Source: an uncultured Bacteroidota bacterium
Lineage (GTDB): Bacteria > Bacteroidota > Bacteroidia > Chitinophagales > UBA2359
Direction: 5' to 3'
Length of the DNA: 64,000 nt
Assembly: GCA_937907475.1 (NCBI GenBank)
Contig: CALCIK010000228.1
Location: 5,050 to 69,049, forward strand
This document shows positions 3 to 13,882 of the stretch, one piece after another; positions within the stretch are counted from its first letter, which is position 1, and every line of letters begins with the position of its first letter. The notes under the pieces were generated by a model. It was not told the DNA's origin, made no database searches, and saw only the letters and a list, made by a program, of their open reading frames with translations. The translations under genes were made by a program, and so were the position numbers.

Positions 3-2255
3 AGCTTTGCGCAGTATTTTGGCATAGGCAGCCCTGTTTTGGTGGTGCAAAACAAAATAGATGCCACCTCCCATTTACACGACCCCTACCCGTATCCAAG
101 AGTTCAAAATGAGTTAAAAACTAAATTTCCCGCCATAGTTGATTTTATAGGGGTAAGCACCAAAACAGGCAAGGGTTTTATAGTACTGGCAGATGCCATA
201 GAGCGTTTGTTTACCGAAAACCCCACCCTCCGCAACGATTTATTAAACAAGCCCCTGCCCAAAACATGGTTGCAAGTGCGCCACCGCATACGCCAAGAGC
301 AAGAAAACGAAAAAGGCTTAGACCTTATACCTTTCAGCCTTTTTGAACAATGGTGCCATGATGCTGGCATAGCCGCTTCTGCCCCCACCCTTGCCCATTT
401 TTTACACCAAACCGGCGTTGTGTATTACCAACCTCCCTATTTTTCTGGGCAAATTATCCTAAATCAGGCATGGGCAATAGAAGCCGTTTACCAAGTCCTT
501 GACCGCGAAGGCGATTATTTTGAGATATTGGAATATCGCCAAGGAACATTAGATTATACTACCCTATGCAGAATTTGGGCAAAAAATACCAATGATGAGC
601 GTAACTTGTTTATAGATTTTATGTTGAGCAGCGAGTTGTGTTTTGAAACCACCCCAAACAAAAAATACCATACGCCCTTACAAGAGCGCACTTTTACCGT
701 ACCACAAGCTTTGCCCCCCACAGAGCCGCCCTCTATTGCCACAGAGCAAACCCGCCTGCAAGCAAATGAAACTATTACACGGTCTTATACCTTTTTACCC
801 TCCATCTTTATACAGCGTTTTATGATTAGGGCGCATCGATTTTCGGAACATCGGTATATGTGGCAGCACGGCATCGGTTTATATAATACTGATGAAGCGT
901 ATGCCGTAGTAAGGGCAAATTATACGCACGGTCAGCACACCATTACCATTCATTACAATGCAGCCGCCGTAGCCAGCAAATTGCTACAAGCTATAGAAGA
1001 AGAAGTGCAAATTTTAGAAGCCGAAGATAAAGACCAATCTAAACCATTTAAAGAAAAATCGGGTTTTAAAGCATTGAACTATTATCAAAAACCAAAAACT
1101 GAATCAGTTATGTCCCAAAACAAACTTAACCTTTTCATTTCGTACTCGCCCGAAGATGAAACCTTTAAAAAAGCATTTGATAAGCATTTAACAAGCCTTA
1201 GACGAAGTGAGCAAATTGCTACTTGGGATAGCAGTAACGTGTTGGCAGGCAGTAATTTAAGCTCTGCCATAGAAGGCCTTCAAAATGCCCATGTCATTCT
1301 AATTTTAGTAAGTACCAACTACATTTCAGATGATAAATTGTGGAAACAGCATTTGCTAAATGCTATATATCGGCATGAACGAGGTTTTGCCCGCATAATC
1401 CCCATAAAAATTACCGATTTTGACGATAAAAATCTCCCCTTCAGCAAAATACAGGGACTGCCCCGAAATGGAAAAGCCATAGGCTCACCTAACAACAATG
1501 CAGCATGGTTAGAAGTAGCCAAAGAAATTCGCGCAGTGGTAGAGGATATGTTGGCAAAAGGCATTGGCGTTCAAAATAATATACCACCACAGTACAAGCA
1601 AGAAGGACAGGGTAATAACAAACCAAAGGATAACCCATATCCACAGAGCAAAGAGAAGAAAAAAGTACTCTTTATTTGCTCCAGCCCAAGTAATGTGGAT
1701 GTAACCCTAAATTTTGGTACCGAGTTTCGAAATATCGCAGATGCGCTCAATAGTAGCTCTCATAGGCAAAAATTCAACATCTCTATTAAAACCGGTGTAC
1801 AATTTGACGAACTTACACGGTTGTTATTACAAGAAAAATCCGATGTACTGCATATTTCCATGCACAGTTCACTTGAAAAAGGTGGTTTATTATTTGAGTA
1901 CAAAGATAGCAGCTTACAACCGCTTAACCCTGAATCCCTAACAGGTATGATACGAATTGCAAACTACCAATTAGATTTGGTAGTTTTGAGCGCTTGTAAC
2001 TCAAAAGCTCACGCAGTAGCTGTTGCCAGCCTTACTACTGTTGCAAATGTAATTGGCATGAATGATTTAATTTCGGACGAAGCGGCAGCTTATTACGCTG
2101 AGAAATTTTATGAAATTTATTTTGACCATCAAAATGTCTTGCAAGCTCACCAAAATGCTCAAGAATCGTTAAAAGCTAACAGCAGAATTGGAGATCATAC
2201 TATCTTTGCGGAAGTTCCTTATATCCAAAAATTAAACAACCACATACTACCATGA
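3..2255 (+). CDS. Roco-family protein, 5'-truncated by window edge: (Roc GTPase end)-COR-TIR-linker-CHAT caspase-like protease
   Basis: Frame is open from base 3 (SFAQYFGIGSPVLVVQNKID) and is collinear with the paralogue at 5482. Roc G4 NKID and G5 VSTKTG; COR motifs LPKTWLQVR, FLHQTGVVYY, ILNQAWAIEAVYQVLD; TIR LFISYSPED...IIPIKI...PFSKIQGLP; CHAT KVLFICSSP, DVLHISMHS (His codon 1863) and LVVLSACNS (Cys codon 1995). Confidence 0.92.
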   Translation, partial: SFAQYFGIGSPVLVVQNKIDATSHLHDPYPYPRVQNELKTKFPAIVDFIGVSTKTGKGFIVLADAIERLFTENPTLRNDLLNKPLPKTWLQVRHRIRQEQENEKGLDLIPFSLFEQWCHDAGIAASAPTLAHFLHQTGVVYYQPPYFSGQIILNQAWAIEAVYQVLDREGDYFEILEYRQGTLDYTTLCRIWAKNTNDERNLFIDFMLSSELCFETTPNKKYHTPLQERTFTVPQALPPTEPPSIATEQTRLQANETITRSYTFLPSIFIQRFMIRAHRFSEHRYMWQHGIGLYNTDEAYAVVRANYTHGQHTITIHYNAAAVASKLLQAIEEEVQILEAEDKDQSKPFKEKSGFKALNYYQKPKTESVMSQNKLNLFISYSPEDETFKKAFDKHLTSLRRSEQIATWDSSNVLAGSNLSSAIEGLQNAHVILILVSTNYISDDKLWKQHLLNAIYRHERGFARIIPIKITDFDDKNLPFSKIQGLPRNGKAIGSPNNNAAWLEVAKEIRAVVEDMLAKGIGVQNNIPPQYKQEGQGNNKPKDNPYPQSKEKKKVLFICSSPSNVDVTLNFGTEFRNIADALNSSSHRQKFNISIKTGVQFDELTRLLLQEKSDVLHISMHSSLEKGGLLFEYKDSSLQPLNPESLTGMIRIANYQLDLVVLSACNSKAHAVAVASLTTVANVIGMNDLISDEAAAYYAEKFYEIYFDHQNVLQAHQNAQESLKANSRIGDHTIFAEVPYIQKLNNHILP

Positions 2256-3509: not shown

Positions 3510-6500
3510 ATGAGCCAACTTGCCTTAGACCTTATAACCCAAGAAGCCACACAAAAAACCGGCTACCTTGAACTGGGTAAATGCGGACTAACCCCCGACA
3601 ACCCTCAGCTGCAACAAGTATGGAAGGAATTAGGTAAACTCAGCCACTTGCAAACACTGATTTTGAGTGATGCGTGGTGGGAGTGGGATGGTGAAAAGAA
3701 ATATTGGAAAGAAAAGCAAAGTCAAAATTCAGGAAACGATAACTTTTTGGCAGAACACCCCGATACGCTGCAAGAATTGTATAATTTAACAACCTACATT
3801 TGCGGGGGATTTCGGGATAATAGATGGCAAATAAGCAAAATCCCCCAATTTGCCAGCCCCAATAAATTGCTATACTTATATTTAAGTGTCAATCAAATTG
3901 CCCGAATAGAAAACCTAGAAAACCTGCCCGATTTGCAGGTATTAGACCTTAGCGGTAACCAATTCACTAAGATAGCAAACTTAGATAACCTGCCCAAGTT
4001 GGAGCGGTTAAACCTTAACAACAACTACCTCACCAAGATAGAAAACTTAGATAACCTGCCTAAGTTGCAAGAGTTAATGTTTGGTTACAACCAACTCTCT
4101 AAGATAGAAAACTTAGAGAGGCTGCCCAATTTGCAGGGGTTATTCCTAAACAACAATCAACTCAGCATTATAGAAAACTTAGATAGGCTACCTAAATTGA
4201 AAAAGTTAGCCCTTGTAAATAATAAAATTGCTAAAATAGGGACTACGTTTGACTTGCCTTGTTTAGAAAAATTAGACCTAAGCAAACATCAACTTACCAA
4301 AATAGAAAATTTAGATAAACTGCCCAATTTACATGAGTTAGACCTAAGCCATAATTACCTCACCAAGATAGAAAACTTGGATAGTTTGTATAATTTACAA
4401 GTGTTGAACCTTGAAAGCAACCAACTCACCAAGATTGAAAACTTAGATAACCTGCCCAATTTGCATGAACTAAAATTTGGGAGTAATCAACTTGCCAAGA
4501 TTGAGAACTTAGATAACTTACCTAAGTTAAAAAAACTGTATTTTAGTTTAAGGTTTTCTCCAAATTATGGGAACGCACTCGCTAAGATTGAAAACTTAGA
4601 TAATCTATCAAATTTGGAGGAGTTATATCTTGGAGGCAACCGCATCACCAAGATAGAAAACTTAGATAGACTATCTAATTTACACAGATTAGATATTTGG
4701 GCTAACTCACTCACTAAAATAGAAAATTTAGACAACCTACCAAATTTACAATGGCTAACTCTTGGTAATAATGGAATTACCAAAATAGAAAATTTAGACA
4801 ACTTATTACTACTAAAAACTTTAGACCTCAGCGTCAATCTAATCACCAAGATAGAAAACTTAGATAAGCTGCTCAATTTGCAGGGGTTATTTCTTAACTT
4901 CAACCAACTCACCAAGATAGAAAATTTAGATAGCTATCTCAATTTGCAGGGGTTAGACCTTAGCAATAACAAAATCACCACCCCCATTACCCTTACCTTC
5001 TTGCGGCAGTTCCCTAAATTGTATTCGTTAAATTTGAGCAGTAACCCCATATCCAATATCCAATCCGAAATAATTTCGGATAGTGATTGTTTACCCACCC
5101 TACGCACCTACCTACAAGACTTAGAAGAAGGCGGCGAACCCAACAACGAAGTAAAAGTACTGTTTATAGGCAATGGTAATGTGGGCAAAACACAAATAGC
5201 CGGGCGCTTGGCGTGGCAAGATAAGTTTGTTTTTAATATACAACACCACTCTACTCATGCCATTTGTTTGCTTAGGCGGCATTTACCCACCACCCTGCTA
5301 CCACAAGGTTTGCAACTCAACCTTTGGGATTTTGGGGGGCAAGCTATGTACCATGCTACTCACCGTTTGTTTATGCGCACCCGCGCCTTGTTTTTATTGG
5401 TTTGGGACAAAGAAAACGAAGCCGCTCCGTACCATATTTGGGAAAACCGGCAGTACAACAATGAAAAACTGCTCTACTGGCTCAGTTATGCGCAGTATTT
5501 TGGCAAGGGTAGCCCTGTTTTGGTGTTACAAAACAAAAAAGATGCCACCGCCCATTTACCCGACCCCTACCCGCCGCTGCCGGTACAGCGGGAGCTAAAA
5601 AACAAATTTCCCGCCATAGTTGATTTTATATGGGTAAGTGCTAAAACCGGCAATGGTTTTAGAGTGCTGGTAGATACCATAGAGCGTTTGTTTACCCAAA
5701 ACCCCACCCTCCGCAACGATTTAGTAAACAAACCCCTGCCCAAAACTTGGTTGCAAGTGCGCCACCGCATACGCCAAGAGCAAGAAAAAGAAGAAGGCTT
5801 GCCCATTATACCGTTCAGCCTTTTTGAACAATGGTGCCAAGATGCCGGCATAGCCACCTCTGCTCCTACCCTTGTCTATTTTTTACACCAAACCGGGGTT
5901 TTGTATTACCAACCTCCCTATTTTTCGGGGCAAATTATCCTAAATCAGGCATGGGCAATAGAAGCTGTTTACCAAGTCCTTGACCGCGAAGGCGATTATT
6001 TTGAGCTATTGGAACATTACCAAGGAAAATTAGATTATACCACGCTATGCAAAATTTGGGCAAAAAATACCAATGATGAGCGCAACTTGTTTATAGATTT
6101 TATGTTGAGCAGCGAGCTGTGTTTTGAAACCACCTCATTTGAAAAATACAATGCCAGCTTACAAGAGCGCACTTTTACCATACCGCAAGCATTGCCCACC
6201 ACAGAGCCGCCCACTATTGCCACAGAGCAAACCCGTCTGCAAGCAACTGAAATTGCTACACGATCTTATGACTTTTTACCCTCCGTCTTTATACAGCGTT
6301 TTATTATTAGAGCGCATCGGTTTTCGGAGCATCAGGATATGTGGCAGCATGGCATTGGTTTGTCTTATACTAAAGAAGATTACGCCGTAGTAAGGGCAAA
6401 TTATACGCTCGGTCAGCACACCATTACCATTCATTACAACCCAGCCGCCGATGCAAGTGGATTACTAAAAGCCATTCAAGAAGAACTGCAAATTTTAGAA

Positions 6501-7061
6501 GCCGAAGATAAAGACCAACCTAATCTATTTAAAGAAAATTCGGGTTTTAAAGCATTGAATTATTACCAAAAACAGGAGATTAAGCCACTCATGACCCAAA
6601 ACAAACTTAACCTTTTCATTTCGTACTCGCCTGAAGATGAAGCCTTTAAAAAAGCATTAGATAAGCATTTAACAAGCCTTAAACGAAGTGAGCAAATTGC
6701 TACATGGGATAGCAGTAACGTTTTAGCAGGCAGCAATTTAAGCTCTGCCATAGAAAGCCTTCAAAATGCCCATGTCATTCTAATTTTAGTAAGTACCAAC
6801 TACATTTCAGATGATAAATTGTGGAAACAGCATTTGCTAAATGCTATATATCGGCATGAACGAGGTTTTGCCCGCATAATCCCCATAAAAATTACCGATT
6901 TTGACGATAAAAATCTCCCCTTCAGCAAAATACAGGGATTGCCCCGAAATGGAACATCCATAGGCTCACCCAACAACGATGAAGCATGGGTAGAAGTAGT
7001 CAAAGAAATTCGCGCAGTGGTAGAGGATATGTTGGGAATAGGCATTTGTATTTTTCGGTAA
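3510..7061 (+). CDS. Roco-family protein LRR-Roc-COR-TIR (no protease domain)
   Basis: About 18 SDS22-like 22-aa LRRs. Intact Roc motifs GNGNVGKT (G1), LWDFGGQ (G3), QNKKD (G4), VSAKTG (G5). COR domain, then a C-terminal TIR ending 10 codons after the TIR helix. No signal peptide. Confidence 0.93.
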   Translation: MSQLALDLITQEATQKTGYLELGKCGLTPDNPQLQQVWKELGKLSHLQTLILSDAWWEWDGEKKYWKEKQSQNSGNDNFLAEHPDTLQELYNLTTYICGGFRDNRWQISKIPQFASPNKLLYLYLSVNQIARIENLENLPDLQVLDLSGNQFTKIANLDNLPKLERLNLNNNYLTKIENLDNLPKLQELMFGYNQLSKIENLERLPNLQGLFLNNNQLSIIENLDRLPKLKKLALVNNKIAKIGTTFDLPCLEKLDLSKHQLTKIENLDKLPNLHELDLSHNYLTKIENLDSLYNLQVLNLESNQLTKIENLDNLPNLHELKFGSNQLAKIENLDNLPKLKKLYFSLRFSPNYGNALAKIENLDNLSNLEELYLGGNRITKIENLDRLSNLHRLDIWANSLTKIENLDNLPNLQWLTLGNNGITKIENLDNLLLLKTLDLSVNLITKIENLDKLLNLQGLFLNFNQLTKIENLDSYLNLQGLDLSNNKITTPITLTFLRQFPKLYSLNLSSNPISNIQSEIISDSDCLPTLRTYLQDLEEGGEPNNEVKVLFIGNGNVGKTQIAGRLAWQDKFVFNIQHHSTHAICLLRRHLPTTLLPQGLQLNLWDFGGQAMYHATHRLFMRTRALFLLVWDKENEAAPYHIWENRQYNNEKLLYWLSYAQYFGKGSPVLVLQNKKDATAHLPDPYPPLPVQRELKNKFPAIVDFIWVSAKTGNGFRVLVDTIERLFTQNPTLRNDLVNKPLPKTWLQVRHRIRQEQEKEEGLPIIPFSLFEQWCQDAGIATSAPTLVYFLHQTGVLYYQPPYFSGQIILNQAWAIEAVYQVLDREGDYFELLEHYQGKLDYTTLCKIWAKNTNDERNLFIDFMLSSELCFETTSFEKYNASLQERTFTIPQALPTTEPPTIATEQTRLQATEIATRSYDFLPSVFIQRFIIRAHRFSEHQDMWQHGIGLSYTKEDYAVVRANYTLGQHTITIHYNPAADASGLLKAIQEELQILEAEDKDQPNLFKENSGFKALNYYQKQEIKPLMTQNKLNLFISYSPEDEAFKKALDKHLTSLKRSEQIATWDSSNVLAGSNLSSAIESLQNAHVILILVSTNYISDDKLWKQHLLNAIYRHERGFARIIPIKITDFDDKNLPFSKIQGLPRNGTSIGSPNNDEAWVEVVKEIRAVVEDMLGIGICIFR
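3861..5060 (+). repeat. Intragenic 66-bp LRR tandem array
   Basis: Repeating (T)KIENLDNLPxLxxLxLxxNQL unit, DNA 'accaagatagaaaacttagat'; one repeat has a 7-aa insertion (SLRFSPNYGN). Confidence 0.9.
5482..7046 (+). repeat. Direct repeat of bases 1-1565 (paralogous Roc-COR-TIR segment)
   Basis: Constant offset of 5481 bp with no indels (1 to 5482; ggcatt at 1560 to 7041); high but patchy identity. Confidence 0.93.
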
Positions 7062-13137: not shown

Positions 13138-13263
13138 TCATCAAAAAGCAGAAATTAAACTGCCATACCTACTCCTGCCCATTCAATATAGAGAGGTAAA
13201 GCGATAAAATATTTGTTGATTTTAGCGTTTAAATAGCAGAATAAGCATATTAGAGTGCTATTT

Positions 13264-13532
13264 TAAAACCTTTTTTAGGGCTTAAAAAACAATTGTTAAG
13301 GGATAAAAAACCTTTTTTAGAGCCTGCAAAACAATTGTTAGGGGATAAAAAACCTTTTTTAGAGCTTACAAAACAATTGTTAAGGGATAAAAAACCTTTT
13401 TTAAAGCCTACAAAACAATTGTTAAGGAATAAAAAACCTTTTTTAGAGCCTACAAAACAATTGTTAGGGAATAAAAAACCTTTTTTAAAGCCTACAAAAC
13501 AATTGCTAGGAGATAAAAAACCTTTTTTAGAG
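13264..13532. repeat. 42-bp tandem repeat, about 6.4 copies, each with two dyads
   Basis: AACAATTGTT palindrome recurs at 13288, 13330, 13372, 13414, 13456 and 13498 (last has one mismatch); each unit also has AAAAAACCTTTTTT. Confidence 0.92.
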
Positions 13533-13882
13533 GCGAAAAATCTATTTTTAAAGCTACCCAAAGCATTTTTGGGGCTAAAATTTTTATCAAAACAACCCAT
13601 TACGCCATCTATCCTCCCTCACAATATTTAGCGTGCCCTTTTTTATCTTCCCCTTTAAAACAACACTAAGGCATTGCGTTGATGCTATAAATTAAAGGCC
13701 TGTTGACTAAAAACTGCTTGTTTTGCTGATTTCGACAGCCGCGCAAATTTACTTACAATTTTAGCATTCACCAACTTATCCAGTACTATTTAAACAGTAA
13801 CCCCACAGGATTTATTCCCTTTTTGTTGTTAAATCAAGATATGCTGTTTCATATTTACAACTGCTTTCTCAATTACACATCG

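Follow-up and report, generated by a model that had tools for sequence, protein, structure and literature searches.

The 64,000-nucleotide stretch of DNA analysed here (the window) comes from contig CALCIK010000228.1 of an uncultured member of the Chitinophagales (Bacteroidota), and three genes on its + strand, gene A, a bacterial gasdermin (bGSDM) gene and gene B, fill its first 7 kb (Table 1). Gene A starts 1816 nucleotides (nt) to the left of the window and encodes a product of 1357 amino acids (aa) in full, the last 750 of which lie inside it; its domains run in order from an LRR region through a Roc GTPase, COR-A/COR-B, a TIR_2 domain and a low-complexity linker to a CHAT protease domain. 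Gene A has intact copies of the Roc motifs GNGNVGKT, DLGGQ and NKID and an intact CHAT dyad (His 1863-1865 and Cys 1995-1997, codons checked), and the HISMHS and LSACNS stretches of CHAT fall on the dyad motifs of PDB 8tl0 when the two are aligned. The gasdermin gene shares its first 4 nt with the end of gene A, and the bGSDM gene directly adjoins the protease gene. Gene B begins 449 nt after the gasdermin, has intact GTPase motifs of its own (GNGNVGKT, DxxGQ and NKxD) and stops about ten residues past its TIR domain; a hidden CHAT domain after gene B was ruled out, as tblastn found no match to a CHAT remnant downstream of it. The feature that concerns us is a histidine which both TIR domains carry in place of the canonical catalytic glutamate.

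The motif NYISDDKLWKQHLL occurs twice, once in each paralogue, and a degenerate pattern for NYISDDKLWK has exactly two matches, at 1317-1346 and 6798-6827, where 0 are expected from shuffled sequences. CAT is the His codon at 1350 as well as at 6831, in each case inside KLWKQHLLNAI. A phmmer search with the 154-residue TIR domain against 1.84 billion representatives yielded 14,543 relatives, and when the 216 domains of the best 150 proteins are aligned without gaps, the corresponding column holds Glu in 171 domains, His in 8, Gln in 8 and another residue or a gap in the remainder. The local consensus of the family at this column, DFLASDYCWDVEMKRALERH, is very close to the TIR_2 consensus which a preliminary description of this DNA had aligned, residue for residue, in assigning His to the position of the NADase glutamate. 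When a profile of 44 family members is compared with PDB sequences, the Glu of this column coincides with the Glu of AbTir 'WTEYEL' (E208), BtTir 'WTNYEL', Cat1 'WCWDEL' and TLR6 'YEL'. E208 has been called 'the key catalytic residue' of AbTir, in which E208A is inactive and E208D has reduced activity (Manik et al. preprint), and in an AlphaFold2 (AF2) model of the window TIR, His81 sits in the helix formed by residues 75-90, which is alphaC. At the level of sequence, the replacement of the canonical catalytic Glu by His in both TIRs is thus confirmed.

The pocket has lost more than its Glu. The Asp at the start of the BB-loop (Asp41, present in 140 of 216 domains), whose equivalence to Roq1 D45 and AbTir D167 comes from sequence alignment only, is Ser in the window TIR; position 76, which is Tyr or Phe in 154 of the 216 domains, is Lys; and the PCDW motif after strand D has become DFDD. 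AbTir W204 lies on the same helix as E208 and stacks on a nicotinamide mimic (Manik et al. preprint); the assignment of a column to this residue is ambiguous, with a one-residue gap in the alignment, and Trp78, two residues on, is retained in the window TIR. K202 of AbTir, which contacts the diphosphate, aligns with an Asp. The BB-loop Gly47 (within LAGS, and equivalent to AbTir G174) and the FISYS motif are also retained. The N-terminal half of alphaC in the window TIR is free of Glu and Asp; position 80 is Gln there and Glu in two relatives. Across the 216 domains, Asp41 is absent from 38 of the 45 that lack Glu, as against 38 of the 171 that have it, and this loss of Asp41 alongside that of Glu81 is the pattern of active-site decay, not of re-tooling.

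Table 1. Features of the gasdermin locus, in window coordinates
Feature	Positions	Strand	Evidence
Gene A, 3' part, LRR-Roc-COR-TIR(His)-CHAT	3..2255	+	Open reading frame (ORF) extended on contig C228; Pfam COR-A, COR-B, TIR_2, CHAT
TIR domain of gene A, 154 aa	1110..1571	+	TIR_2 42.1 bits; PADLOC ThsB1 6.8e-27; AF2 model; Foldseek
Ser where the family has a conserved BB-loop Asp (D41)	1230..1232	+	Family alignment, codon check
182-nt run in the TIR core, identical to 6757-6938 of gene B	1276..1457	+	Sequence comparison; dS by region
Lys at the family's aromatic column, profile-aligned with AbTir W204	1335..1337	+	Family alignment, profile, codon check
His codon (CAT) at the catalytic Glu column, helix alphaC	1350..1352	+	Alignment, AF2 model, codon check
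Low-complexity linker between TIR and CHAT	1572..1718	+	Translation; no Pfam match
CHAT caspase-like protease domain	1719..2189	+	Pfam CHAT 41.7 bits; PDB 8tl0 alignment
Bacterial gasdermin, 269 aa	2252..3061	+	PADLOC bGSDM 3.5e-33; NCBIfam prok_gasdermin 118 bits (cut-off 100 bits); PDB 7n51/8sl0 2e-12
Gene B, 1183 aa, LRR-Roc-COR-TIR(His), without protease	3510..7061	+	Pfam; identity to A; GTPase motifs
TIR domain of gene B, His codon CAT 6831-6833	6591..7043	+	TIR_2 42.6 bits; codon check

The two domains belong to the TIR family: both pass Pfam TIR_2 (PF13676, cut-off 28 bits), and the AF2 model (pLDDT 87.7, pTM 0.85) alternates strands and helices in a flavodoxin-like beta/alpha fold. A Foldseek search against the PDB listed 50 matches, nearly all of them TIR structures, as are all 15 with E <= 0.001. 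The top match is the TIR filament of MAL (TM 0.61-0.65, with identity of only 12-20%), one of the animal adaptor TIRs which, as in the filaments of MAL and MyD88, use the TIR fold for assembly; the enzyme TIRs AbTir, BtpA and L6 score about as well, and there is therefore no specific kinship of the window TIR to the animal adaptors.

The closest TIRs outside this genome likewise have His at the Glu column, in the sequence DDDLWKEHL. They fall into two groups, P0010/L011/L006 (64% identical), which come from a metagenome-assembled genome (MAG) and a metagenome and are LRR-Roc-COR-TIR-CHAT proteins with an overlapping gasdermin gene, and P0009/L032 (61%), which have the architecture TIR(His)-EAD11-CHAT. 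In trees of the TIR domains computed after removal of the trait column, the His rows group in a single clade (95/80) that lies within the Glu TIRs and has the Glu-bearing TIR-EAD11 proteins P0017/P0018 as its sister (100/98), which indicates a single Glu-to-His change in the CHAT lineage. The His and the motif around it, DD[KD]LWK[QE]HL, are invariant across the three diverged lineages, in each of which the TIR lies N-terminal to CHAT, and within the clade conservation is highest in the former active-site helix. Gene B is the sole copy in the clade that has no CHAT domain.

A scan of one genome per species with the His-clade alignment as the query returned only distant TIRs, at 28-34% identity. 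The 401 genomes of the same order contain no close TIR(His)-CHAT protein (the best TIR match is 40%) and no orthologue even within the genus, a distribution typical of an accessory defence gene. A metagenome scan gave one further His locus only (L011), the others having Glu, or Glu offset by one residue. The L006/L011 locus is the only other full LRR-Roc-COR-TIR(His)-CHAT plus gasdermin locus, and it has no paralogue B within 605 nt: nothing resembling the start of gene B follows the gasdermin, and non-coding tandem repeats occupy the 376-605 nt to the contig end, a repeats-only stretch that neither shows nor excludes a partner. This suggests that the His-TIR predates a protease-less partner and does not need one.

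The repeats themselves are direct repeats that start right after the gasdermin (L006:6490-7094 and L011:7017-7392), as two copies of ~130 nt followed by short tandem units that translate as KILTFKRKILT, and each of the two contigs breaks off within them. The orthologue in the MAG (GCA_002344145.1) has its LRR part divided among separate ORFs (L006:1973-2822); the metagenome copy (L011:2302-6213) is one intact ORF of 1303 aa, and the split in L006 is likely to be an assembly frameshift or to mark a decaying copy. The genes for TIR(His)-EAD11-CHAT (L032) and TIR(Glu)-EAD11-CHAT (L033) are solitary, with neither a gasdermin nor a sensor beside them, and are uninformative as to an adaptor role. 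Soil metagenomes also contain tandem TIR pairs (L014, L017 and L019-L024), a recurrent pairing of a live and a degenerate TIR: the first keeps Glu, whereas in the second, whose identity to the query is ~24%, the column is Arg, Leu, Gly or a gap.

Gene B is a partial tandem duplicate of gene A; the duplicated segment begins 28 nt ahead of the ATG and stops where the TIR ends, and the two genes are 84% identical over Roc-COR-TIR. Synonymous divergence (dS) between them is 1.11 in the LRR region, 0.35 in Roc, 0.26 in COR and 0.09 in the TIR core. The TIR-coding DNA of A and B is 99-100% identical, third codon positions included, and the identical run of 182 nt spans the His codon. The low TIR dS and the identical run indicate that the two TIRs have recently been homogenised by gene conversion, and because of this the His residues, although present in both paralogues as had been described, are not independent and count as one observation. 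The ratio of non-synonymous to synonymous divergence (dN/dS) between A and B is 0.17-0.37 (0.17 in the TIR core), and purifying selection is acting on both paralogues. We considered and rejected the idea that gene B is a pseudogene, its ORF and GTPase motifs being intact and its dN/dS being in this range.

Comparison of gene A with two of its relatives shows which parts of the protein have changed together. The orthologue in L011 is 29% identical in Roc, 26% in COR, 63% in the TIR and 59% in CHAT, and the gasdermins of the two loci are 44% identical; with the TIR and CHAT conserved and Roc-COR diverged, TIR(His)-CHAT and the gasdermin behave like a movable effector cassette. The second relative, P0154, is 66% identical to gene A in Roc, 59% in COR and 58% in CHAT, and has EAD11 in the place of the TIR. 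P0154 (1240 aa) is encoded in the same genome, on contig C45:1796-6354, as the LRR-Roc-COR-EAD11-CHAT protein of a second gasdermin system, where it is followed by a 269-aa gasdermin that is 38% identical to the window gasdermin. EAD11 lies between COR and CHAT instead of a TIR in P0154, P0155 and P0161, and EAD11 versions stand beside a gasdermin in L007, L008, P0161 and contig C45. Our literature search on EAD11 found nothing relevant, and EADs in general are described as small non-catalytic adaptors that match on sensor and effector (Kaur, Burroughs, Iyer, Aravind 2020; PMC8195603). The window TIR resembles them in two respects, in that the same small domain is found on the effector (A) and on the sensor (B) of one locus, and in that it is interchangeable with EAD11 at the same architectural position.

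The host genome is unusually rich in Roco-TIR sensors. At least three LRR-Roc-COR-TIR proteins with Glu are encoded on contigs C36, C31 and C169, and a 386-aa CHAT-TIR(Glu) protein on C142; there are several other TIR proteins too (across C36, C31, C169, C142 and C40), two of them with Ala at the Glu column. Gene B has the architecture of this common stand-alone sensor-effector, but with a Glu-less TIR.

A change from Glu to His is found a second time in the family. P0163, a TIR-Peptidase_C14 protein, has His at the same column (SEYLWNEHL) and also lacks Asp41, and its sister P0039 (98/97), of the same architecture, keeps both the Glu and the Asp. The P0163/P0039 pair stands apart from the CHAT clade, and a single origin of the two His residues appears in no bootstrap tree, placing this second change as independent of that in the CHAT lineage. 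The operon that encodes P0163 (L054/L055) also encodes a double STAND NTPase whose terminal domain is a TIR of this family that bears Glu. In full, the operon (L054:295-8968 and L055:266-8478) consists of an AAA_22 ATPase, TIR(His)-Peptidase_C14, a 341-aa protein of unknown function, a MoxR-like AAA, VWA_CoxE and the double STAND NTPase-TIR(Glu); it resembles a MoxR-vWA ternary conflict system with paired TIRs, one dead (caspase) and one live (NTPase). Among 273 collected domains, Glu is absent from 15 of 30 TIRs fused to CHAT or C14 and from 36 of 243 others (Fisher 3e-5), a contrast that comes from biased and related samples. The CHAT- and C14-fused TIRs account for at least five changes, and it is suggestive that protease fusion goes with loss of the Glu.

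As to the surroundings of the window genes, the locus consists of A, the gasdermin and B only, between ORFs that by eye have a housekeeping look (sucC-like and UbiA-like), and a scan for sigma-70 promoters and terminators gave nothing above shuffled sequences. Farther to the right, at 13250-13631, overlapping ORFs on both strands contain a repeated unit of ~33 nt (KKGFLSPNNCFVG / KKPFLEPTKQLLG), which is probably a non-coding tandem repeat.

The reading that we favour, and to which we assign a probability of roughly one half, is that the TIR of A and B is catalytically degenerate and has been retained, fused to CHAT, as an adaptor or a module for self-association. A scaffold function had been put forward in the preliminary description, in the form of homotypic assembly modules through which the protease-less sensor recruits or activates the TIR-CHAT protein. 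As a general proposition this is plausible, the Glu and the BB-loop Asp both having been lost and the comparative data lending indirect support; the requirement for a protease-less partner is not borne out, as the L006/L011 locus has no paralogue B within 605 nt. Four lines of evidence support an assembly role indirectly. The TIR occupies the slot that EAD11 fills in sister systems, one of them in the same genome; TIR(His) stays with CHAT on Roc-COR scaffolds that are unrelated to each other; the protease and its protease-less paralogue carry the same TIR; and an independent Glu-to-His change has occurred in a TIR-caspase whose operon encodes an NTPase with a Glu-TIR.

TIR enzymes are activated by self-association, and a TIR placed before CHAT could have kept this property as it lost catalysis, becoming a proximity module of the kind that CARD or EAD provides elsewhere. 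In the mechanism that we propose, a ligand bound by the LRRs would flip the Roc-COR GTPase switch, and association between TIRs, the ancestral mode of TIR enzyme activation, would gather the CHAT domains and activate them by proximity. CHAT would then remove the C-terminal inhibitory peptide of the gasdermin, and the resulting pores would kill the cell. The product of gene B, with its diverged LRRs and a TIR kept identical to that of A, would co-assemble with A through the TIR (and COR), adding a second recognition specificity, so that a second sensor is plugged into the same executioner. Gene B is in this scheme an add-on and not the reason for the His-TIR.

Several observations weigh against a degenerate assembly module. 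A compensating acidic residue may be present elsewhere in the TIR pocket, and a His that is conserved rather than variable also fits a chemical or ligand-binding role. The identity of the A and B TIRs is explained by gene conversion, with no selection for heterotypic contact. The structural neighbours of the TIR in Foldseek are a mixture of adaptors and enzymes and do not discriminate between the two. The association of protease fusion with Glu loss suffers from the sampling bias already mentioned, and a phylogenetically independent-pairs test of it had only 3 supported pairs and no power. Many TIR-protease fusions also keep the Glu (P0026, P0030, P0039 and the protein on C142), and fusion to a protease alone does not therefore imply a dead TIR.

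One alternative is that the domain is vestigial, a dead former effector that now acts as a spacer between COR and CHAT, with B an independent protein or a functionless partial duplicate and any coupling between TIRs irrelevant. The loss of catalytic residues fits this, as does the origin of B in a partial tandem duplication whose TIR was homogenised by conversion and not necessarily by selection; a related locus without B within 605 nt, and the prevalence of LRR-Roc-COR-TIR as a stand-alone architecture in the host genome (C36, C31 and C169), point the same way. We nevertheless consider it unlikely, as joint movement with CHAT as a unit is not expected of a mere spacer, nor does a spacer sit easily with a TIR that is the best-conserved domain between A and L011 (63%, against 26-29% for Roc-COR). 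The dN/dS of 0.17 in the TIR core, the constraint on both paralogues with their intact GTPase motifs, and the invariance of His and DD[KD]LWK[QE]HL in three lineages are further arguments for a retained function.

That function might be one of reception, in which the pocket of a His-TIR pseudoenzyme binds an NAD-derived signal made by Glu-TIRs of the same cell and thereby licenses CHAT, a version in cis of the logic of type IV Thoeris, where a caspase-like protease is activated by TIR-made N7-cADPR (Rousset et al., 10.1101/2024.10.24.620036). Possible sources of a signal exist, both in the several Glu-TIR proteins of this genome (C36, C31, C169, C40 and C142) and in the second His lineage, which shares its operon with a Glu-TIR on an NTPase; and the former active-site helix is the most conserved part of the His clade, Gly47 and FISYS are kept, and a conserved His fits a receptor as well as it does an interface. 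The window locus, however, contains no Glu-TIR, and in the pocket an Asp stands at the position of the AbTir diphosphate contact K202 and the aromatic stacking residue has probably been lost. The known receptors are moreover SLOG, Macro and the C-terminal domain of the Thoeris caspase, with no TIR known in this role, and we regard a receptor function as quite improbable.

It is very improbable, finally, that the domain is a re-tooled enzyme in which the His or another residue runs a different catalysis (slow NAD+ hydrolysis, base exchange or use of another nucleotide), leaving the TIR as an effector or signal generator: while His can act as the general base in other NAD-using enzymes, is conserved here, arose twice in the family and fits this role as well as that of an interface, and while the reduced activity of AbTir E208D indicates a site that tolerates some change, AbTir E208A is inactive, three positions of the catalytic pocket appear to have been lost together, the losses of Glu and Asp41 are correlated across the family as in decay, and we found no report of a TIR working with His at the catalytic site in the literature searched.

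The locus is a known Roc-COR-CHAT gasdermin system with an added Glu-less TIR and a protease-less paralogue. The known system is that of Runella zeae, where the bGSDM gene likewise adjoins that of a large LRR/Roc-COR protein ending in CHAT and where, as may be expected here by analogy, the protease should release a short C-terminal inhibitory peptide from the gasdermin. The text of the preprint on that system has 0 mentions of TIR (Johnson et al., Science 2022; 10.1101/2021.06.07.447441), and by this text the window locus differs from it in having a Glu-less TIR between COR and CHAT and a protease-less LRR-Roc-COR-TIR paralogue after the gasdermin. The window gasdermin is only distantly related to that of Runella (E = 3.5e-5 to PDB 7n52).

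Small non-catalytic domains that occur on sensor and protease alike, and that recruit and activate upstream of a gasdermin, are also known in the form of the CARD-like domains of type II gasdermin systems and of EADs; the paper describing the former names TIR in passing, not as an adaptor of gasdermin systems (Wein et al., PMC10312443). The putative module here differs from these in having a TIR fold derived from enzymatic TIRs rather than a Death fold or EAD. In the paired TIR-NLRs of plants (RRS1/RPS4), the sensor encoded next to its executor has a TIR without the catalytic Glu and the BB-loop Asp, as here, and acts through TIR contacts and not by catalysis (PMC13732033). The plant executor TIR keeps its Glu and is an enzyme, however, whereas in the window both TIRs are Glu-less and the executor is CHAT plus gasdermin. 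Type IV Thoeris provides a further case of a TIR and a caspase-family protease cooperating in bacterial immunity, but in it a separate active TIR makes the N7-cADPR and the protease degrades many proteins, in contrast to the fused Glu-less TIR and the gasdermin-paired protease of the window. The ThsB1 model matches the window TIR, but the locus contains no gene for a signal-activated effector (SIR2/SLOG, Macro and others) among A, the gasdermin and B. The comparison with animal TLR and MyD88 TIRs that had been drawn for this locus took these to be purely non-catalytic; for TLR TIRs, a 2026 preprint disputes this view with a report that they can make cADPR.

A broader proposal, which we offer tentatively and think on balance doubtful, is that TIRs fused to caspase-family proteases have repeatedly shed their catalytic residues to become bacterial 'caspase-recruitment' TIRs. 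These would dock onto TIR-bearing sensors, either His-TIR paralogues of the gene B kind or Roco and STAND proteins with Glu-TIRs from other loci, such that several sensors converge on one protease-gasdermin executioner. The basis for the proposal is that Glu has changed to His independently at least twice, in a TIR ahead of CHAT and in another ahead of Peptidase_C14, and that other lineages also lack the Glu. If it is true, caspase-recruitment TIRs would be a prokaryotic counterpart of the Myddosome and the inflammasome, built from TIR rather than Death folds.

In the literature that we searched, bacterial TIRs are treated mainly as NAD+-consuming enzymes, and the window locus presents a testable case of a TIR that, placed ahead of a caspase-like protease where EAD11 or CARD-like adaptors stand in other systems, has apparently been turned from an enzyme into an assembly module. 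The locus bears on the question of how the Roc-COR-CHAT protease is switched on in bacterial gasdermin systems, and genes A and B, if they act together as proposed, would form a simple two-gene pair in which to study how paired sensors share one executioner, as in the paired NLRs of plants. If the assembly role is true, then the use of TIRs as adaptors, best known from animal TLR/MyD88, has also evolved in bacteria from enzymatic ancestors.

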